From a virus (Duplodnaviria; Heunggongvirae; Uroviricota; Caudoviricetes): a stretch of 36,723 nt of DNA. Positions 997 to 31,606 of the stretch are shown piece by piece. A program made the position numbers and the translations under genes. Under the pieces are notes generated by a model, which made no database searches, had not been told where the DNA came from, and saw nothing but the letters and a program-made list of their open reading frames with translations. The stretch lies in IMG/VR virus record IMGVR_UViG_2851976983_000007; one strand, 5' to 3'. Every line of letters begins with the position of its first letter. Within the stretch, counting starts at the first letter, position 1.

Positions 997-1188
997 TACG
1001 TATCCTTATACCTGAAATCTTCGCAAGTATGCCTGGCCGCGAGATTATGGCACACTTGTCCGGTTAACTCTCGTCTCATACAGGTAACACAAACGTGAAA
1101 ATCCTTGTTGATGAAAAAAATGATGATTTAATTTATTGATATAAAAGGATTTATATCAGCACGTGTCCACGTAGTGACCACATTTTCG

Positions 1189-1228
1189 AGTTACAGATAA
1201 CACAAAGCCCGTTTTCACGGGCTTTGTG
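1189..1228. terminator. Perfect 17-bp inverted repeat (AGATAACACAAAGCCCG / CGGGCTTTGTGTTATCT) with 6-nt loop; likely terminator or insulator between low-GC module and flk
   Basis: Read directly from sequence around 1190-1230; no clear U-run, so intrinsic terminator function uncertain. Confidence 0.4.
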
Positions 1229-1262
1229 TTATCTGGATTGTGGCTAAGCCACATGATTTATG

Positions 1263-2155
1263 CTATTTCCAGTTACAAGCAGCTTGAAGTGGTTTTAGCG
1301 CGTTTGACAGGCCGTTTAAATTGAAAGTTGCACTTACAGGGCTCTCATTATAAGGAGTTATTTTTGTATACATTTTGTTTGAGTTGGCTAGTTTTCGGAT
1401 GAAATCAATGTCATTACCTTTATAAAAAACAGCCTTTGTATCTGTAGATACTAGCCAGTTTCGCTCAACTGCTTTCTGTTTATCAAGACGATAAAGCATG
1501 CTGGTTTGTTCAAGGCCTAAATATACATCCCAACTAAGAAATACTTCGGTTTTCTTTTCTCGGCAAGCTATAAACAGAGTGGGAGTAACCGCTTCTCCAA
1601 ATGGAGTTCTGATATAATCATCACTTTCTAACGATAAAATTACATTTTTCGAATCATCAATTGGCGATGTAGTAATGGATGTGTGCCATTTTCCTACATC
1701 TGTGGCTTTCTCTAATTTTGATTCAGCTTGAACAGCTTTATCCTGTGGGAATAGTTTATCGTAGCAGTTTAGTCTGGCTTCTTTATCATTTTCTGCTCGG
1801 CATTTAGATATCTCAGAAAGATTTGGTTGCTGAGCCTCTGTTGTTACTGGCTTTTCCGTTTTAGATTTTGAGTTTACAGATGGAGTAAATGTTGGAGAAA
1901 AAAACGATCATAACAAGATAAACGTCTGTCATCATCTTTCTCATCAGGGCATTGATCTCTGCTTTCGAATTTTTCAGCAACTTTCGTTCGAGTCGGTTGT
2001 ATTGACTTATCGTAACAAGAAAGTCTGTCTTTATTATTTTCTATTGCTCGGCACTGGAGTACTGCATTGAAGTTATTATGTTCAGTTGCTGCGTGAACAG
2101 GCAGTACACTAATTGATATAAATGATGCACCTATAGAAAAAATTATATTTTTCAT
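1263..2155 (-). pseudogene. Secreted Cys-repeat protein gene, reading frame broken at an A7 (minus-strand T7) homopolymer near 1898-1904; N-terminal part 1874-2155 carries a signal peptide, C-terminal part continues in another frame to 1263
   Basis: ORF 1874..2155 starts MKNIIFSIGASFISISVLPVHA; my manual translation shows the 1263..1499 frame is open upstream to a stop at about 1908 with no ATG; motif C-R-A-x-E-N-x-K-x-R-L-x-C-Y-D-K occurs three times across both frames; one extra T would fuse them. Confidence 0.5.
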
Positions 2156-2159
2156 TTTG

Positions 2160-2492
2160 TTATCCTTTTGGTTTAGTAAGAAATACTAAAATTCCGATAA
2201 TGATATCGCCAATAACCCATAAACTTCCAATGGTAATTAAACCTAAGCCTGTACCAATAACTGCACCGGCTTTTTCGGCATCGGATGTAGCATTATTTAT
2301 TATTTCACTAGTGCCTCCCAGTCCAACTAAAAGCGTATAGATCATAAAAATATTAAATAATATAAATATCCACTTAATGAGCTTTCCAAAAAATGAACGC
2401 TTAAGTTTTTTTATTTGTTTACCGCAAGCAGGGCAATACAATGCTGAATCGCTCACCTCTTTCTGGCATTCAGGACATTTGATTAATGCCAT
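2160..2492 (-). CDS. Zinc-ribbon (CPECx13CPACG) membrane protein, function unknown
   Basis: 110-aa ORF; N-terminal CxxC...CxxC followed by two hydrophobic helices; strong SD AAGGAGG about 9 nt upstream of ATG; low GC. Confidence 0.55.
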   Translation of the reverse strand: MALIKCPECQKEVSDSALYCPACGKQIKKLKRSFFGKLIKWIFILFNIFMIYTLLVGLGGTSEIINNATSDAEKAGAVIGTGLGLITIGSLWVIGDIIIGILVFLTKPKG

Positions 2493-2753
2493 GTAATCCG
2501 CCTCCTTTGGATCAATACGAGTTGATATTTGTTACAAAACATTTTGATTTTATCAGATTTTTTTTTATTGATAAGTGTCAATTGATTAGCTGGTATAGAG
2601 TGAGACATATAGAAGGGCAGATCTGTATCAGTAGTGATGCAAAAATCCCACAGTTTCATGGAATTTTTGCATTTAGAGCCGTGAGATAGGGTGCCTTATC
2701 GACCTTACCCTGGCAACCGATTGACGGGGGATTACTCCCCCGTCGCGGTTTCC

Positions 2754-2894
2754 TTACTGCTTACACTGTAAGAACGCCGCAAACTCCGCTCCCCAGAAAC
2801 TCATCCGTATTTCGCACAGCGAACCGTGCAACATCCAGATGATGAGGATTACCGTCACGCAGAACGTGATGGCTGTAAGCGATTTTTGCGACAT
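2754..2894 (-). CDS. Hok/Gef-family type I toxin-like small membrane peptide (46 aa)
   Basis: Manual translation MSQKSLTAITFCVTVILIIWMLHGSLCEIRMSFWGAEFAAFLQCKQ: TM helix then SLCEIR...AAFLxC pattern as in HokA/HokC; AGGAG upstream; GC-rich hairpin GACGGGGGA-GTAA-TCCCCCGTC just downstream (about 2717-2738); below the 60-aa cutoff of the ORF track. Confidence 0.6.
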   Translation of the reverse strand: MSQKSLTAITFCVTVILIIWMLHGSLCEIRMSFWGAEFAAFLQCKQ

Positions 2895-3536: not shown

Positions 3537-4559
3537 ATGGGAAGAGATATAACGCTGTACCCTAAAAAAGCAACTAGAAACGAACTTAAAAATTACCTTG
3601 AAAATTTAGGTTTTAAAAGGTGTAAACATTTGTGGGAATGGCCCCAAGGAACGTTGAATTACTCTTGGTTTGATGATACGGACTTCAAATCTACAGATGG
3701 AGTTTCGGCTGATATATATCCTGTTTCAAATGACGAATTACACATATCTGGTAATAAATGGGCATTGCATGTGCGTAATTTATATAGCGCTAGTTGGCAT
3801 GATGTAAAAATGCTTAATGATGTTCTAAAAGGCGCAAGGAGTCTTTTTGGTGGAACACTTATAGGTGATTATGGGAAAAATAGGTACGCTCCTCTATGGA
3901 AGGATTCTAGTAGTCCGATCAGTCGTGGCATTTCTTCAATATTTAATCATGTCCATCATGAGATTTCCGCTGTTAAACATGCCTTACCTGAACCTTCTAT
4001 TAAATTAAACCTACCGGAAGATGGCGGCTTATCCGAATACTTTGATTACATGCAATGTATGGATCCCAGTAGAGTTATATATAATGGATTAGTACCTTTT
4101 GCGGTTGCTATGTTTGAATACTTTTTCTCTAGAGCTTTTCAAATACTTATAAAGTACGATCCTTTCGCAATAGCAAAAAGAACATCGTATAAGCAAAAAG
4201 TTGATTTTGATATTCTGCTTGAGATAGAGAAAGGAAATATTTCAATAGAAAGTGTTATTGCAAGAAATTACACTTTTCAAAACTTAACCCACCTAAACAA
4301 AGCATATAAAGAGTGGCTGGATATAGATGTGAGAGCGATTCTTTATAAGAAAAAAAGAATTGGAAAATCAGTTGATTTTCTTGAGAATCGAATTTCTGAA
4401 ATCATACAATATAGACATGGGATAGTTCATCACTTTGAGTTGGATAGGACCTTAAATCGGGATGGATATATTCATATATTAGATGCGATAGAAAAAAGCA
4501 TAATTGAATTTATCCATTACATAGAAGGCAAATACAAATTTAAATTAAATGCGTATTAA
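3537..4559 (+). CDS. Low-GC cargo protein (340 aa), unknown function; C-terminal helical region with R-x4-H (QYRHGIVHH) suggests a HEPN-like domain; candidate abortive-infection/defence gene
   Basis: Strongly AT-rich ORF inserted between ogr and D on the opposite strand; own AT-rich upstream region with short direct repeats (GTGAAAATT x2, AATAGTT x2) and a downstream hairpin; no ATPase or nuclease motif I can recognise. Confidence 0.7.
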   Translation: MGRDITLYPKKATRNELKNYLENLGFKRCKHLWEWPQGTLNYSWFDDTDFKSTDGVSADIYPVSNDELHISGNKWALHVRNLYSASWHDVKMLNDVLKGARSLFGGTLIGDYGKNRYAPLWKDSSSPISRGISSIFNHVHHEISAVKHALPEPSIKLNLPEDGGLSEYFDYMQCMDPSRVIYNGLVPFAVAMFEYFFSRAFQILIKYDPFAIAKRTSYKQKVDFDILLEIEKGNISIESVIARNYTFQNLTHLNKAYKEWLDIDVRAILYKKKRIGKSVDFLENRISEIIQYRHGIVHHFELDRTLNRDGYIHILDAIEKSIIEFIHYIEGKYKFKLNAY

Positions 4560-11533: not shown

Positions 11534-11570
11534 AACCGCTAATGACCAGATTAGCGGTTATTTTGTTTCC
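11534..11570. terminator. Hairpin AACCGCTAAT-(6)-ATTAGCGGTT followed by ATTTTGTTT; terminator after U, overlapping the 3' end of the invertase ORF
   Basis: Seen in sequence. Confidence 0.5.
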
Positions 11571-12145
11571 TGACTCTTCTCAATTGTTCCGCTTGATTCT
11601 CCTGCGGGGTGGTAACGATAAATCGTCGATATACCAATGCCGTAAATTATTGCCAGTTGTTTTCTGTCGTGCCCGTTTTTGATCAGCCTTGCTATTTGCT
11701 CATGCTGTTCTTTTGTCAGCTTCGGGCGACGTCCGCCTGTGCGCCCTCGTGCGCGCGCTGCAGCCAGTCCGGCCAGTGTACGTTCAACAATTAATTCACG
11801 TTCCATTTCAGCCAGGGCACCCATCACGTGGAAGAAAAAACGCCCCATTGGAGAAGATGTATCTATGCTGTCGGTCAGACTGCGAAAATTAATCCCTCGC
11901 TCCCGTAGTTCCCCGACGAGAGAAATCAGATGTTTCATGCTTCGCCCGAGGCGATCCAGTTTCCAGACAACCAGCGTGTCGCCTTTTTGAAGGCGCTTTA
12001 AAGCGCGTTTTAATCCCGGTCGGTCTGTCTTTGTCCCGCTTAATTTATCTTCAAATATTTGTTCGCATCCTGCACAAACAAGAGCGTTTCGTTGCAGGTC
12101 TGTATTCTGGTCATTTGTTGATACGCGAACATAGCCAATAAGCAT
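11558..12145 (-). CDS. Serine DNA invertase, Hin/Gin/Pin/Cin family
   Basis: MLIGYVRVSTNDQNTDLQRNAL...TLVVWKLDRLGRS...SPMGRFFFHVMGALAEMERELI...GRRPKLT: near-canonical Hin-family sequence with catalytic Ser in RVST; start at second ATG, which has GGGGG spacing. Confidence 0.9.
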   Translation of the reverse strand: MLIGYVRVSTNDQNTDLQRNALVCAGCEQIFEDKLSGTKTDRPGLKRALKRLQKGDTLVVWKLDRLGRSMKHLISLVGELRERGINFRSLTDSIDTSSPMGRFFFHVMGALAEMERELIVERTLAGLAAARARGRTGGRRPKLTKEQHEQIARLIKNGHDRKQLAIIYGIGISTIYRYHPAGESSGTIEKSQETK

Positions 12146-12200
12146 GATCATCCCCCTGAATAAAAACCGGGGATGATGCCAGTTAGCTGTTACCTCTGCA

Positions 12201-12226
12201 TTTTCTTAAACGTTGGTTTGGAGAAG
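12201..12226. other. Candidate invertase crossover site, left (26 bp, 12-2-12: TTTTCTTAAACG TT GGTTTGGAGAAG)
   Basis: hix/gix-like half-sites TTnTCnnAAAC; about 50 bp from the invertase start; inverted relative to the right site. Confidence 0.55.
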
Positions 12227-12925
12227 GGCCGATGGGTTGTTGGCCCGGGCAATGCAATACTGTATGGACAGCTGGTCCGGTATGGTGTTTTGGTTCAACG
12301 GGCGAAATTTTCTGCCTCTGATTACCCTGTGCTGGCGAAGTGTTCCTTCGCTGTATTACCTGAAGCCCGGTGATTTCATTCGTATCTGATGACGGCGAGG
12401 TCAGACGGGTCGAATATTGCTGGCAGGCAGCTACAAACTTTTCTCAGTTTCCGGAATATAGGCGAGGTGCGGGACACGCAATTAACTTCATGATGCATCG
12501 CCGAAATCAGCCAGGATTTCAGATTTAATTTCACAGTAATCTGTGGTGATGTGTGAATTTTTTGCTGTCAGCCGCGAAAATTGCATTTATTTCTGGTGAG
12601 GCTAATAATGAACCTGTTTGATGAAATGGGCTGGCTACAGTGCCGGCGATATGCGTGTTTTATTATGATGCTGAACATCTGAGTATACGGGCTGTCTGAT
12701 GAATATAATACTGCGTAAGTATGCCCGCCTGTTCATGGTATTGCCCTGGCGAACATTGGAAGAGGCAGTATTTACAGGTAAGGATGGACCATGAAAAGAC
12801 CATCGCAATGAGACTGTTATCAATCGAAATGGTCGCTGTAAGTGGATTATATCGGTGCCATCAAAACGTTATGTCAGCTTTACCGTTACGCCATTGATAA
12901 TGGATGGTGAGAATGGGTGACAGAT
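12227..12925. repeat. Left arm of long inverted duplication (about 85-90 percent identical to 13220-13968, inverted), carrying an alternative tail-fibre C-terminal segment and a frameshifted tfa copy
   Basis: Manual alignment of + strand here against the reverse complement of the right arm; many substitutions and 1-nt indels. Confidence 0.7.
12608..12925 (+). pseudogene. tfa' remnant (tail fibre assembly chaperone pseudogene), multiple frameshifts relative to the intact tfa
   Basis: Begins ATGAACCTGTTTGATGAAATGGGCTGG, homologous to tfa ATGAAACCTGTTTTTGATGAAAATGGGCTGG, but stops after about 25 codons. Confidence 0.6.
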
Positions 12926-13157
12926 ACTAAGGCCACACGGTGCCGCAGTAGAGCGCAGAAGCACAGCGCCAGTCACTGATTGATGCTGCAATGGCTTCCA
13001 TCAGCCTGATTCAGCTGAATTACAGGCCGGGCGGAAGCTGACGCAGGCAGAACCACCCGGCTTAACGCCGTGCTGATTCATGCCGGTCGACATCAGCCCG
13101 GCCGATGTCATGCCTGAATGCGGAGCAGCCATTCAATATCTGGCGCTGGTTCGCCGT

Positions 13158-13535
13158 TCAGTGCGCCAGTTGTGCCTTATATTGCACCATTCTCACCATC
13201 CATTTATCATATGGCGTTAACGGTGAAAGCGTGACATAACCGTTTTTGATGGCACCGATATAATCCACTGTAACAGCAGCACCATTTTCGATTGAGTAAA
13301 CAGTCTCATTGCGATGGTCTTCTTCATGGCTCCATCCCTTACCTGTAAATACTGCCACTCTTCCCGGGATGTTTTCGCCAGGGTCAATACCAGTGGAACA
13401 GGCGGGCATACTTACGCCAGTATTAATATATTCATCAGACCAGCCCGTATACTCAGATGTTTCAGCATCATAATAAAAACAACGCATATCGCCCGGCACT
13501 GTAGCCAGCCCATTTTCATCAAAAACAGGTTTCAT
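13158..13535 (-). CDS. G: Tail fibre assembly chaperone (Tfa, N-terminal Tfa domain only)
   Basis: 125 aa; ...PACSTGIDPGENIPGRVAVFTGKGWSHEEDHRNETVY... parallels lambda Tfa ...[39 protein letters not shown]... Confidence 0.85.
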   Translation of the reverse strand: MKPVFDENGLATVPGDMRCFYYDAETSEYTGWSDEYINTGVSMPACSTGIDPGENIPGRVAVFTGKGWSHEEDHRNETVYSIENGAAVTVDYIGAIKNGYVTLSPLTPYDKWMVRMVQYKAQLAH

Positions 13536-13968
13536 TATTTAGCCCTCACCAGAAAGTTAAATGCAATATTTCGCGGTCTGACAGCAACAAAATTCACACC
13601 ATCACCCACAGAGTTACTGGTGAAATTAAATCGTGAAAATCCTGGCTGATTTCCGGCGATGCCATCATGAAAGTTAATTGCGTGTCCCGCACCTTCGCCT
13701 ATATTCCGGCAACTGAGAAAGTTTGTAGCTGCCTGCCAGCTTAATAATCGCGACCACCGTCTGCACCTCGCCGTCATCCAGATACGAATGAAATCACGCG
13801 GGCTTCAGGTAATACCAGCGAAGGAAACACTTTCGCCAGCACAGGTAATCAGAGCAGAAAATTTCGCCCCGTTGAACTTCAAAACACCATACCGGACCAG
13901 CTGTCGATTACAGTATTTGGCATTGCCGCGGAGGCCCAGAAGAACGGAACGCCAATAGCTGGAGCACC
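13220..13968. repeat. Right arm of the inverted duplication (H C-terminal region plus 5' two-thirds of tfa)
   Basis: See left arm; pairing derived by manual alignment. Confidence 0.7.
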
Positions 13969-15030
13969 TTCTCCCAAACCAAGGTATGCGAGAAGACCAG
14001 CAACATCCTTTCCACTCAAATTAGTCAGCGTATTGTCCAGCGGTTGTTTGTCTGCCAGTGCATTAAGCACTGTTGTTGAAAAGTTAGGGTCATTCCCCAG
14101 CGCCGCCGCCAGTTCATTCAGTGTATCCAGTGCCGCAGGGGCAGAACCCACCATTGCCGCAATTGCTGATTTCACAAAAGCTGTGGTGGCAATCTGTGTA
14201 TTGTTGACCGACTGTGCCGCAGTAGGTGCTGTTGGCGTTCCGGTAAGTGCCGGACTCGATAGCGGCGCTTTCAGTGCCAGCGCATTGTTAATGGTGGTGC
14301 TGAATTTCGGGTCATTGTTAATGGCTGCGGCAATTTCTTTCAGTGTGTCCAGCGTGGCTGGCGCACCGTTAATCAGATCGGTAATAGCGGCCTGAACAAA
14401 CTCAGTGGTCGCAATCCGCGTGGTGTTATTTCCTGCGGCAGGCGTCGGCGCTTTTGGTTCTCCGGTAAATGTCGGATTATGTTTCTGCGCATACTGGGTA
14501 TGAGGATCCTGTGCGGCAATGTGGTTTCTCATCTGGTCATCCACATACAGCTTTAATTCCAGGACTTTATCATCCACGTATTTACGGGTCGCCAGTACCA
14601 CCGACGGGTCGATTTTCAGCGTGATGGCTTCGGTGTTCGTGACAACCAGAATCATGCGGATAGTCTGGGTGCGTCCACTGCCTTCCTGCAACTGCGGTTT
14701 GTACGTTTCCGGGCAGTTTGCCACCGCAATGAGTACACCTTCATCATCATAAAGACCAATCTCACGGATCCAGAATCCTCCCTCGTTTTCAGGGATGATT
14801 TGCTCAGCAATAATCTGGCTCTGATTGTTAGGGTCAACACTCAGAAGATTCAGCGGTGCAATGCGTTTCTGGTTAATCAGTTTTGTTTGTGCAGGGTCTG
14901 GTGTTGGTAACACACCATTTGCATCACCAACGGCCATTTGCGTCAGATTCAGCTTACTGCCGAGCATCGTCGCGTTAGCCAGTCGTGCCGCGCCCTGATT
15001 AGTCAGAATGGCGTAGTATTTCACTGTCAT
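13879..15030 (-). CDS. H: Tail fibre protein H: P2 H-like constant N-terminal region, then only 34 aa after the crossover site
   Basis: N-terminus ...MAVGDANG...EGGFWIREIGLYDDEGVLIAVAN...YKPQLQEGSGRTQTIRMI... parallels P2 gpH; 383 aa versus about 670 in P2, so the distal region is short or decayed. Confidence 0.85.
   Translation of the reverse strand: MTVKYYAILTNQGAARLANATMLGSKLNLTQMAVGDANGVLPTPDPAQTKLINQKRIAPLNLLSVDPNNQSQIIAEQIIPENEGGFWIREIGLYDDEGVLIAVANCPETYKPQLQEGSGRTQTIRMILVVTNTEAITLKIDPSVVLATRKYVDDKVLELKLYVDDQMRNHIAAQDPHTQYAQKHNPTFTGEPKAPTPAAGNNTTRIATTEFVQAAITDLINGAPATLDTLKEIAAAINNDPKFSTTINNALALKAPLSSPALTGTPTAPTAAQSVNNTQIATTAFVKSAIAAMVGSAPAALDTLNELAAALGNDPNFSTTVLNALADKQPLDNTLTNLSGKDVAGLLAYLGLGEGAPAIGVPFFWASAAMPNTVIDSWSGMVF
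13969..13994. other. Candidate invertase crossover site, right (TTCTCCCAAACC AA GGTATGCGAGAA), inside the H coding sequence
   Basis: Left half closely matches my recollection of the hixL left half (TTCTTGAAAACC); in frame it encodes AYLGLGEG of H; inverted relative to the left site. Confidence 0.6.
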
Positions 15031-28736: not shown

Positions 28737-28850
28737 CGCTTACGGGATTCTGAAATCCCGTTTTTGCCTGTTTTATGCGCGCTTCATATATCGCGGCGCG
28801 TTTTTTGCTCATTTACGGGATTTGTGAATCCCGTTTCTGTCTGTTTTTTG
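28737..28850. promoter_or_regulatory. Two direct copies (about 73 bp apart) of a 20-bp palindrome ACGGGATT-N4-AATCCCGT each followed by a T-rich tract, upstream of the parM-like gene; candidate parC-like centromere/operator
   Basis: Seen in sequence at about 28742-28761 and 28815-28834; architecture resembles ParR sites flanking the par promoter. Confidence 0.5.
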
Positions 28851-28987
28851 TTTCCACTGGTCAGGCCACCCCGCAGCAGGTCTGCTTTGCGGCGGGCGCG
28901 TTCAGTGGTTTCACTGATTCTCTGTGCGTGCTCTGCGTCGCGGATGGCGCGCAGCATGTCAGAAAGCACGGTAACGGGTGTTTTCAT
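28784..28987 (-). CDS. Hypothetical small protein (67 aa) between A and the par module; its 3' end overlaps the palindromic repeats
   Basis: ORF only; weak SD. Confidence 0.3.
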   Translation of the reverse strand: MKTPVTVLSDMLRAIRDAEHAQRISETTERARRKADLLRGGLTSGNKKQTETGFTNPVNEQKTRRDI

Positions 28988-29185
28988 GGTGTTCTGGTCC
29001 TGCTGAAGTGTGGATGCCAGGCGTGCGGCGGCTTCGGGGTCTGATGCCCCCAGCTGTTCCAGATAGCTGGCGACCGGGTTATGGCGGATCTCCGTGCTGC
29101 TTACGCCGTGGTTACGGCTCAGGCGCTGCCAGAGCTGCGTGATCCGGCTGTCCGGTCGGGTATCCGGTTTGCGTACAATTTCAAA

Positions 29186-31606
29186 TCACTGCGGTGCAAT
29201 GATGCTGCCGTCGACGTACAGACTGCCGCCCCGTAACAGGTGCTGCATCTGCTGTTCACCGATATGCAGGCCGAGAGATTCAGCAGACTCCCGCCATTCT
29301 TTAGCGAGTAACTCGTGGTTATCAGGCAAAGGCCGTGGCTGTTTGCGGCTCTGTGTCCAGTTCTGCATTTCATCACTGCTGTTTTTTGCCTGTTTGTCAC
29401 GCAGCGAACGCATCAGCGCCCGGCGTTCGTGCCGTTTCAGTGAGCGCATCCATTCATTCACGTCAACGCCGTCAGGAAGCTGCGGCCACGGTGCTGGCCG
29501 TTCTTCCGGCTGTTCTGTCCCGTTGTTGTCCGTTTCCTGTACACGGGGACAGTTATTGCCACGAGTCCAAGGGGCGGCAGGGCCGCCCTGAAGGTCAAAA
29601 CCATTTTCGCGGGCGCTGTCTTCCGCTTCCGGTTTACGTCTTACCAGCTTCCAGTTATCCGGATGTGTGCACACACGGGAAGACTCCCCGATGAGCGGTG
29701 ACCAGATCCCGTAAATCTGTACGCTCTGTTCGCCGTAATCGTTCAGCTCATCTGCGAGGTCGTAGGCGGTGCGAATCAGGTAGTCTTTGCGTGGAACAAG
29801 TACGCCGCCCTGTTTTTCAATGTAGGAGGCAAAACACCCGGCATCAGCGGCAGCGAGCACTGCATCCATTGCGTCATCCTTCAGTCGTTGCGGGCCTTCC
29901 GGGTTGCGTGCCATCTGGCTGGCAAGGCGGCGCAGTTCACGCCACACCTGACGGGAGGGGATGCCAAAGAACTGGAACTGGCGGACCCGGTGAAGGCGCG
30001 CCCAGCCGATGGCGCGCTCCACGCTCTCGGCCATTGATTTTCCGGTTTCGTGGTCAACGCGTGGCTTGCCCGTTTTCGGGTCGATACCATCCACGGCGCG
30101 GCTGTCCAGGTTCTTTCCGATGTAGGTGGCGATGTAGCTGGTTGGCGTGCCTTTTGAGCCGTCGACGTACTCCGCCTTAAAACGCGGAGTTATGTCATCG
30201 CCCAGCTCGTGGCGGTCTTCCTGAATGGCAATATCGCAGACGTGGGACACGATGGTTTCAATCTCGTCCGGATGTGCAAAGACCATCATATGCCAGTGCA
30301 CAGTGCCGTCATGGTGAGGCTCCACCGTGCGGATGCCATACCAGCGAAGACCGTCGCGGTTCAGTTTTTTGCGGACCGCCGCAAAAAACGTGTTAACCAG
30401 GTAATCGCTGGAGTCGCGCATGGTGGCCCCGTTCCATTTGGGATTCGGATGACCGTTCTCTGTTGTGGCGTGGTATTTTGACGGGCAGGTGACAGTCAGA
30501 AACACCGCTCTGTCGCCACGGGCTTCGGCCAGAAGTTCCAGTCCCTTCATGGTGGCCATCATTTCTGCCTTACGGTGAACCGGGTTACTTACTCCCGCGT
30601 AATACACCGTCTCGAGATCAATCGTGAACCCGTCTTCATTTTCCAGCATGAAACTTTTCAGGAAATCGCGTGTTTTCTCGCGCTGTGCGCGAAACTCGCT
30701 TAACGCGTCCTGGCTCAGATAGGGTGATGTTTTTCTGGAAACCAGACAGGCGGCGCGGAGTTGTTCTTCTCTCCACTCGCAACGTAACAGCCACAGTTTG
30801 CGTTTCCACCATTCCGCACAGGTCAGGCGAAGGATTGCGCCCGGCAGCAGCTCCGTGTCCGGTTCGTTCCTCCGGTCTTTGTCTGTTGTCAGTGCGTCAT
30901 AATGTGGAGGCATGGCGTGCAGGTGTAACGCCATGCGGGCCAGCATCTGATACGCCTTCAGCGTTACATCCATGGTCAGTTCGCCATCAGTAGCGCCAAA
31001 GCCATCGCAGAGTTTTTCGAAGGTGCTGCTGAACATCGCCGCCGTCATGGTGGCCAGCGTCTGTATCTGGTGTTTGTTGAGCTGCGGCAGGTAAAGCAAA
31101 TCGTCCAGGCGTTCGCGTCCGGCAAGGGAGCGATAACCCGGTGTCAGCCAGCGGTGATCGGTGCGGTCCAGACGTTCGAATATTTTGCACAGGGTTCCGC
31201 GCGCGTAGCGTTCCGCCTGCCAGCTCTTTTTGCCTTTCTGACGATCGGCTTCCTGCTTCTTGCGCAGGAAGGAGAGGTGGCGAATAAGCGGATCGCGCAG
31301 ATAGGACGGCAGCAGGCGCAGCGAGGCCATGGCTTCATCCACCGCGCCGCGTGCCTGTTTTCTGGCGTCTCCTGCCAGTGTGATGGTTTTGTCCTGTTTT
31401 TCCTGTGCGTCCAGGCTTTTATTAATCAGGTTGCCCAGCGGCGTGGCGGAGAACGCCGCATCAGCCATTTCCTGGCGGCGCTCGTTCTCTACCCGGTAGG
31501 CATCCAGCCAGGAGGAAAGCGCGGATTCAGGAGCGGAGATCCCCGTTCCTTCACGCCCCACTGCGTGGCGCGGTTGTTGCCAGTCCCTGATGTACTCTGC
31601 CGTCAT
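29186..31606 (-). CDS. A: Replication initiation protein A (rolling-circle endonuclease)
   Basis: 806 aa; ...[24 protein letters not shown]... parallels P2 gpA ...[22 protein letters not shown]... Confidence 0.9.
   Translation of the reverse strand: [806 protein letters not shown]

Follow-up and report, generated by a model that had tools for sequence, protein, structure and literature searches.

One base missing from a homopolymer interrupts a VasI/TagO-family cargo gene in a P2-like prophage of Escherichia coli

Near one end of a 36,723-nucleotide stretch of viral DNA (IMG/VR record IMGVR_UViG_2851976983_000007; "the window" below means the whole of this stretch), the minus strand between positions 1263 and 2155 carries two reading frames end to end, one with a signal peptide that stops early and one that is open but begins without a start codon. 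Are these two genes or one broken gene and, if one, is the break a mutation, a switch or a mistake in the assembly?

The minus-strand ORF at 1874–2155 specifies 93 aa and opens with a Sec-type signal peptide, MKN-IIFSIGASFISISVL-PVHA/A. The first-pass annotation had observed that it ends soon after an A7 tract, and its stop codon (1874–1876) does lie 22 nt past the run, which in the sense of the gene is T7. That annotation had also described the neighbouring frame as open to 1263 with no ATG until 1499; the frame indeed runs to a stop at 1263–1265, and a search of it (1263–1897) for ATG, GTG or TTG upstream of 1499 found none, the first being M220 (window 1499). The Cys motif said to recur in the second frame is there as well: the repaired protein contains C-x11-CYD[KR] three times with identical spacing, the third copy, at 1755–1802, being the one in the neighbouring frame. 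One extra base had been expected to yield a single protein of about 300 aa, and the addition of one T to the window gene gives a 297-aa protein identical to WP_000789404.1. The parts of the gene are the following.

1874–2155, minus strand: truncated 5' ORF, consisting of the signal peptide, Cys motifs 1 and 2, seven out-of-frame residues (LQHLLHL) and a stop.
2006–2053, minus strand (residues 35–50): Cys motif 1, CRAIENNKDRLSCYDK, modelled as a helix-turn-helix hairpin.
1904–1951, minus strand (residues 69–84): Cys motif 2, CPDEKDDDRRLSCYDR, ending at the first base of the tract and modelled in the same way by AlphaFold2.
1898–1904, minus strand: homopolymer and site of the -1 deletion, T7 in the gene and A7 on the plus strand, as located by alignment and census.
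1263–1897, minus strand: out-of-frame 3' part of the gene, residues 87–297, comprising a linker, then Cys motif 3 and the beta domain (VasI/IalB-like).
1755–1802, minus strand (residues 119–134): Cys motif 3, CRAENDKEARLNCYDK, which begins the Pfam VasI domain and is out of frame here.

Megablast of window 1150–2550 against 5,426 complete E. coli genomes located this region in 239 of them, where the annotation lists a "zinc ribbon domain-containing protein" and after it a "type VI secretion system-associated protein TagO." In the best match, CP025892, the CDS measures 894 nt (297 aa, WP_000789404.1), and T8 in place of the window's T7 is the sole difference over 1401 nt (a single 1-nt gap), so that the resemblance is not due to chance. 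About 5.1 kb of flanking sequence adds no further difference. Intact T8 alleles read CGT TTT TTT TCT, that is, R84 F85 F86 S87.

The first-pass annotation had pointed to orthologues as the place to look for an intact single ORF, and single intact ORFs of 297–298 aa are what one sees in E. coli, Citrobacter phage PhiSM, phage P88 and Klebsiella phages. The homologue in Klebsiella phage 3LV2017 (67% nucleotide identity, 298 aa, intact) has all three motifs, with ...CYDRFFSPTF... again at the junction. Altogether an uninterrupted ORF of 297–298 aa spans the position of the break in 190 of 236 complete E. coli genomes and in the phages. By these alignments window 1263–2155 is proven to be one gene cut by a one-base homopolymer deletion, and this deletion is its sole lesion.

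Two separate genes with their own starts, the arrangement that had been set against the single-gene proposal, do occur as an annotation: in RefSeq the allele of enterotoxigenic strains (ETEC) is split, giving a hypothetical protein of 93 aa and a TagO of 188 aa. We rejected the idea that these are two real genes. The ETEC copies carry the same T7 frameshift and the downstream "gene" has ATA as its first codon and lacks a Shine-Dalgarno sequence; the two-gene annotation is therefore an artefact and not a refutation.

The repaired protein scores 89.6 bits against Pfam VasI [PF11319; gathering threshold 26.5], residues 118–296 aligning with profile positions 1–184 of 184. Against the NCBIfam equivalog TIGR03360, which denotes the same function as Vibrio cholerae VasI, it scores 75.9 bits, below the cut-off of 124.2. 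An AlphaFold2 model based upon 24 homologues predicts three helix-turn-helix hairpins, one per Cys motif, with disordered linkers between them, and after these a beta-rich domain modelled with confidence (pLDDT >90). The eight cysteines, namely the three motif pairs and the invariant C198 and C294, would fit a disulfide-bonded periplasmic protein. Hairpins number one, two or three in family members of about 210, 250 and 297 aa, respectively. The gene product is best explained as a Sec-exported periplasmic protein in which a signal peptide is followed by three helical hairpins of C-x11-CYD type and then by a beta domain that is VasI/IalB-like.

With VasI/TagO (PF11319; V. cholerae VCA0118), a T6SS (type VI secretion system) accessory protein, the window protein shares the signal peptide, the C-x11-CYD motif and the two invariant cysteines of the beta domain. 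Unlike VasI/TagO, the window gene is found on a P2-like prophage rather than in a T6SS cluster, and its product has two extra N-terminal copies of the Cys hairpin relative to the family. The function of TagO/VasI is given as unknown in a 2026 review (PMC13584744). The similarity to IalB of Bartonella [invasion-associated locus B; PDB 3dtd; PF06776] is one of fold only and implies no shared function; identity is 18%, the Pfam score falls below the gathering threshold, and IalB is without the N-terminal Cys hairpins.

The window begins with flk (1–996) and continues as a P2-like prophage up to the integrase at its far end. The near end is marked by an att core that was published for phage PhiSM of Citrobacter and lies at the 5' end of pdxB (PMC6456863).

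1101–1117, plus strand: 17-bp att core ATCCTTGTTGATGAAAA, an exact single match where none is expected by chance; prophage end at the 5' end of pdxB.

The core is embedded in GTGAAAATCCTTGTTGATGAAAAAAATGA (window 1095–1140, plus strand), which is the detached 5' end of pdxB (MKILVDE...) beside flk, left there by the prophage insertion as has been described for PhiSM in E. coli K-12. The prophage is related to PhiSM and P88, and is inserted at pdxB/flk. To set its boundaries we used P88_4B11, PhiR44_2 and the att core as published; "Escherichia phage 500465-2" was discarded as a boundary reference because that record takes in flk, yfcJ and fabB.

The stop codon of the interrupted gene lies 146 nt from the att core, on the prophage side, and the gene order leading up to it is gpD, a 340-aa ORF, ogr, hok, a Zn-ribbon gene and then the VasI-like gene. 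PhiSM ORF1 and P88_4B11 gp37 share this position, after gpD-ogr-hok and the Zn-ribbon gene and next to attP, and the window gene is 96.4% and 92% identical to them, respectively, at the nucleotide level. Both of these copies are intact (297 aa), the run in PhiSM being interrupted (CGT TTC TTT TCT), whereas the window copy has T7 and is frameshifted. The same gene adjoins attP/int in P88_4B11 and stands at the genome end in PhiR44_2 and PhiSM. ORF1 of PhiSM, as "T6SS VasI family protein," is among the cargo listed by Magaziner et al. 2019 (PMC6456863). Situated inside the att boundary and present in P88_4B11, PhiSM and PhiR44_2, the gene is by position and distribution a cargo gene (moron) of P2-like (Peduoviridae) phages. 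T6SS genes were sought throughout the 36.7-kb window and none was found; among homologues whose neighbourhoods were inspected for them, P0086 and P0079 lie at prophage ends and P0093 is chromosomal with no T6SS genes. Given that the gene is carried as cargo by a prophage and has no T6SS close by, the words "type VI secretion" in its label name a family only.

Three further features belong to the immediate surroundings of the gene.

2160–2492, minus strand: upstream gene for a zinc-ribbon membrane protein of 110 aa (Pfam Zn_Ribbon_1, 31.2 bits).
2547–2574, minus strand: promoter-like site TTATCA, 16-nt spacer, TGaTAAAAT, a consensus match only, upstream of the two-gene unit.
1199–1230, minus strand: GC-rich hairpin AACACAAAGCCCG-TGAAAA-CGGGCTTTGTGTT, read from the sequence, 33 nt past the stop codon.

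The Zn-ribbon gene stops 4 nt before the TagO ATG, and the two genes therefore probably constitute one operon. The hairpin is a possible terminator; its T tail is weak and the terminator scan made no call at 1199–1230. A metagenomic protein of 262 aa (P0090, L026:913–1701) is a natural fusion of a Zn-ribbon, a transmembrane segment and a VasI domain, which supports a functional link between the two window genes and, as a Rosetta-stone hint, suggests that their proteins may act together. Within the promoter-like spacer there is an A9 run (T9 on the plus strand) at 2558–2566, which is A9, A8 or A7 in related loci; part of this variation may be error, some of the related loci being long-read assemblies.

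The 340-aa ORF between gpD and ogr (3537–4559, plus strand) shows a sub-threshold resemblance to Pfam HEPN_RiboL-PSP (22.5 bits against 28.4) and no match in NCBIfam, and is a candidate for a cargo gene of anti-phage or abortive-infection type. In assemblies L015 and L020 a T-run deletion shortens it to 295 aa. Between ogr and the Zn-ribbon gene lies a hok/gef-family toxin gene (46 aa, 2754–2894, minus strand) with a strong hairpin at 2722–2745 just downstream; this is prophage cargo in the form of a type I toxin-antitoxin module. A Gin/Cin-type invertible segment of about 1.7 kb adjoins a recombinase gene (11558–12151, minus strand). The gpA-like endonuclease, a replication gene (28784–31606, minus strand), is labelled "internal stop" in the sequence-identical prophage of CP025892; the window ORF amounts to 806 aa (29186–31606), and the RefSeq pseudogene (L022 6081–8903) includes about 400 nt beyond it. 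The prophage is possibly defective.

At the ends of other P2-like prophages, VasI-family genes with two hairpins or one follow gpD-ogr (L023/L024, 6001–6753; L025, 6001–6633). One such locus, in E. coli, is next to tamB/ytfP and pairs the gene with one for a TM2-domain protein; at the other, the protein is named from Citrobacter cronae and its partner is an unknown protein of 117 aa. Cargo of VasI-like type therefore appears to recur in P2-like prophages at the att-proximal end.

How widespread the shortened tract is was asked by a census with short probes, in which any single difference brings identity below 99% and the counts are of complete E. coli genomes. The first probes, which represented the window allele, covered 190 of about 236 genomes, SNPs beside the tract having blocked the seeding of a second allele (allele C). 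A probe for allele C added 46 genomes and changed the T7 frequency from about 2% to about 18%.

Window-type alleles (n = 190): T8 122, interrupted TTTCTTTT 63, T7 3, T9 0, other 2.
Allele C, about 91.5% identity and mainly ETEC (n = 46): T8 5, T7 40 exact (31 chromosomal, 9 plasmid) and 1 probable.
Total (n = 236): T8 127, interrupted TTTCTTTT 63, T7 43–44, other 2.

The zero for T9 refers to the 190 window-type complete genomes, allele C being without a separate T9 probe. The interrupted form results from a synonymous TTT to TTC change, which phages PhiSM and PhiR44_2 have as well, and the Klebsiella homologue encodes RFFS as AGA TTT TTC TCG, leaving T5 only and no homopolymer tract.

In a collection of 15 billion proteins the exact 93-aa T7 product is found on 53 public contigs, and three other 93-aa T7 variants on 57, 22 and 7. 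The products expected of T9 and T6 are on 4 and 2 short Logan contigs, all of one allele, as against about 139 contigs for T7. Ten T7 loci, retrieved from NCBI and Logan run assemblies and from one ENA metagenome contig, display several distinct flank haplotypes. Some of the T7 assemblies appear to be short-read (the Logan runs, and a contig with a k141 name, which points to a MEGAHIT metagenome). Between the window and the ten there are 14–44 differences, and none is identical to it.

The frameshifted TagO genes in RefSeq [CP010160, strain H1; CP038394, DEC5A; CP148331; ETEC plasmid pCss165Kan; and ETEC chromosomes] have undergone the same T8 to T7 change at the same site. The gene of strain H1 is base-for-base identical to that of the window, but the window flanks are those of a T8 strain, unlike those of the RefSeq T7 copies, and the event in the window is consequently either independent or artefactual. 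Because T7 occurs on several flank haplotypes and the window is nearest to a T8 strain, the haplotypes indicate that T7 arose independently, at least four times. The T7 copies of allele C have in addition Cys47Tyr in motif 1 and a lost stop codon, which goes beyond the lesion of the window copy; to judge from these changes, the allele is an old, vertically inherited and decaying pseudogene.

Our preferred explanation, to which we assign a probability of roughly 0.55, is that the window gene is a young pseudogene derived by slippage, the missing base being a real mutation in this DNA. One T would have been lost from the T8 run coding for Phe-Phe-Ser, with the result that translation would end after 93 residues, and the VasI domain, left without a start codon of its own, would make the allele a null or a very leaky null. 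The most likely cause would be replication slippage of the ordinary, unprogrammed kind at a mutational hot spot. The same lesion recurs in E. coli, where one ETEC lineage has it fixed. UUUUUUU is under-represented in every reading frame of E. coli genes, for which Sharma et al. offer slippage or indel mutability (PMC4066793), and its rarity fits a plain mutational hot spot. We infer, then, that T7 is real in this assembly and that the allele represents a loss of function.

One might also suppose that the strain has T8 and an intact gene, and that the base was lost as a homopolymer under-call in a long-read consensus. This we regard as a serious possibility, though short of an even chance. A change of T8 to T7 is the classic residual error of an imperfect long-read consensus, such errors gather in the longest runs and a native T8 would be exceeded in length by only one other A/T run of the window, whose haplotype is otherwise identical to that of a T8-bearing strain. 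Compared over its whole 36.7 kb with CP025892, the window differs, besides T7, by one SNP and by the invertible tail-fibre segment (approximately 12222–13982), in which dozens of 1–2 nt deletions are seen and the tail-fibre and assembly ORFs are gone. This segment looks like a consensus artefact of reads in both orientations and is a warning as to assembly quality; a stretch so garbled amid sequence identical to CP025892 indicates an unpolished or poorly polished long-read consensus. The 112 gaps of the whole-window BLAST alignment were dismissed as a sign of widespread indel error, as they are confined to that segment. Some public T7 calls may be errors too: in DEC5A the gene itself has a further homopolymer deletion (T6 to T5), and the large-contig T7 assemblies L015 and L020 have deletions at several homopolymers nearby. 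Against an error in the window, however, the sole longer run in it (the 9-mer at 2558–2566) agrees with CP025892 and with apparently short-read assemblies, and no other homopolymer difference from CP025892 is present in about 35 kb. Furthermore, T7 is a true allele in nature: assemblies that appear to be short-read contain it, and in a whole clade it has become fixed.

Of the three causes that the first-pass annotation had offered, pseudogene and sequencing error are those favoured, while the lack of T9 in the census, the broken tracts and the stable T7 clade speak against the third, phase variation. As a contingency locus the T8/T7 tract would switch the exported VasI-like protein on and off reversibly through slipped-strand events and be kept as useful. 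It does lie within the coding region of a gene for an exported protein, like the homopolymers in the 5' part of the contingency genes of Neisseria and Haemophilus, which also have frameshifted alleles in the population; T7 has at least four independent origins; rare T9 and T6 products exist in the Logan contigs of one allele (4 and 2); and the A9 run of the promoter-like spacer would be a second variable run upstream. Yet compared with the Neisseria and Haemophilus tracts this one is short (8 A/T), is not conserved among alleles or genera, changes mostly by -1, and in its T7 form is stable with secondary decay. T9 occurs in 0 of 190 complete genomes, and change is almost wholly in one direction. 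The run is broken by the synonymous TTT to TTC substitution in 63 of 190 alleles, and in PhiSM and PhiR44_2, and is only T5 in Klebsiella, from which it follows that the tract is not conserved. T7 is retained by 40 of the 46 allele-C genomes, which went on to Cys47Tyr and stop loss and show no switch back. An 8-nt A/T run in mismatch-repair-proficient E. coli would be expected to mutate at a rate orders of magnitude below that of classical phase-variable tracts, which likewise counts against a contingency locus, and we think one improbable here. A reading in which the T-run serves a phage-borne periplasmic module, a VasI-like protein with a zinc-ribbon membrane protein, as an on/off or leaky switch, slow and reversible, with T7 partly rescued by a -1 slip on the in-phase U_UUU_UUU heptamer or by transcriptional slippage, seems to us if anything a shade fainter; under it the variable A9 run of the promoter spacer could be a second level of control, and lysogens would vary the expression of a prophage factor affecting envelope or contractile-injection interactions. 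Faintest is deliberate decoding, in which a -1 frameshift on U_UUU_UUU, or transcriptional slippage, would provide both the 93-aa peptide and the full-length protein. The heptamer, as CG U_UUU_UUU C, is in the zero-frame phase of the T7 allele, a -1 slip restores ...DRFFSPTF, and U_UU.U_UU.U is one of the motifs giving >0.1% frameshifting in E. coli without stimulators (PMC4066793). There is, however, no stimulatory structure downstream (fold -9.3 kcal/mol, z = -0.44 versus shuffles), most orthologues are in frame so that a two-frame arrangement is not conserved, and the expected yield of full-length protein is well below 1–2%. The heptamer may render the T7 allele slightly leaky through a -1 slip, but nothing suggests design, and anything programmed, all versions summed, retains only a small fraction of the probability.

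If the window gene is indeed a slippage-derived pseudogene, it is an ordinary homopolymer frameshift in a dispensable prophage cargo gene and carries little weight as a discovery. The same T7 frameshift has already been deposited in RefSeq, as a "frameshifted" or split CDS, and the family and the cargo status of the PhiSM gene are known. What is gained is practical and concerns annotation: one frameshifted VasI/TagO-family pseudogene, or a flag for a possible homopolymer error, should be entered at this locus, and not two genes. Of modest interest beside this is that exported VasI-like proteins with one to three Cys hairpins recur beside small membrane proteins at the ends of P2-like prophages.
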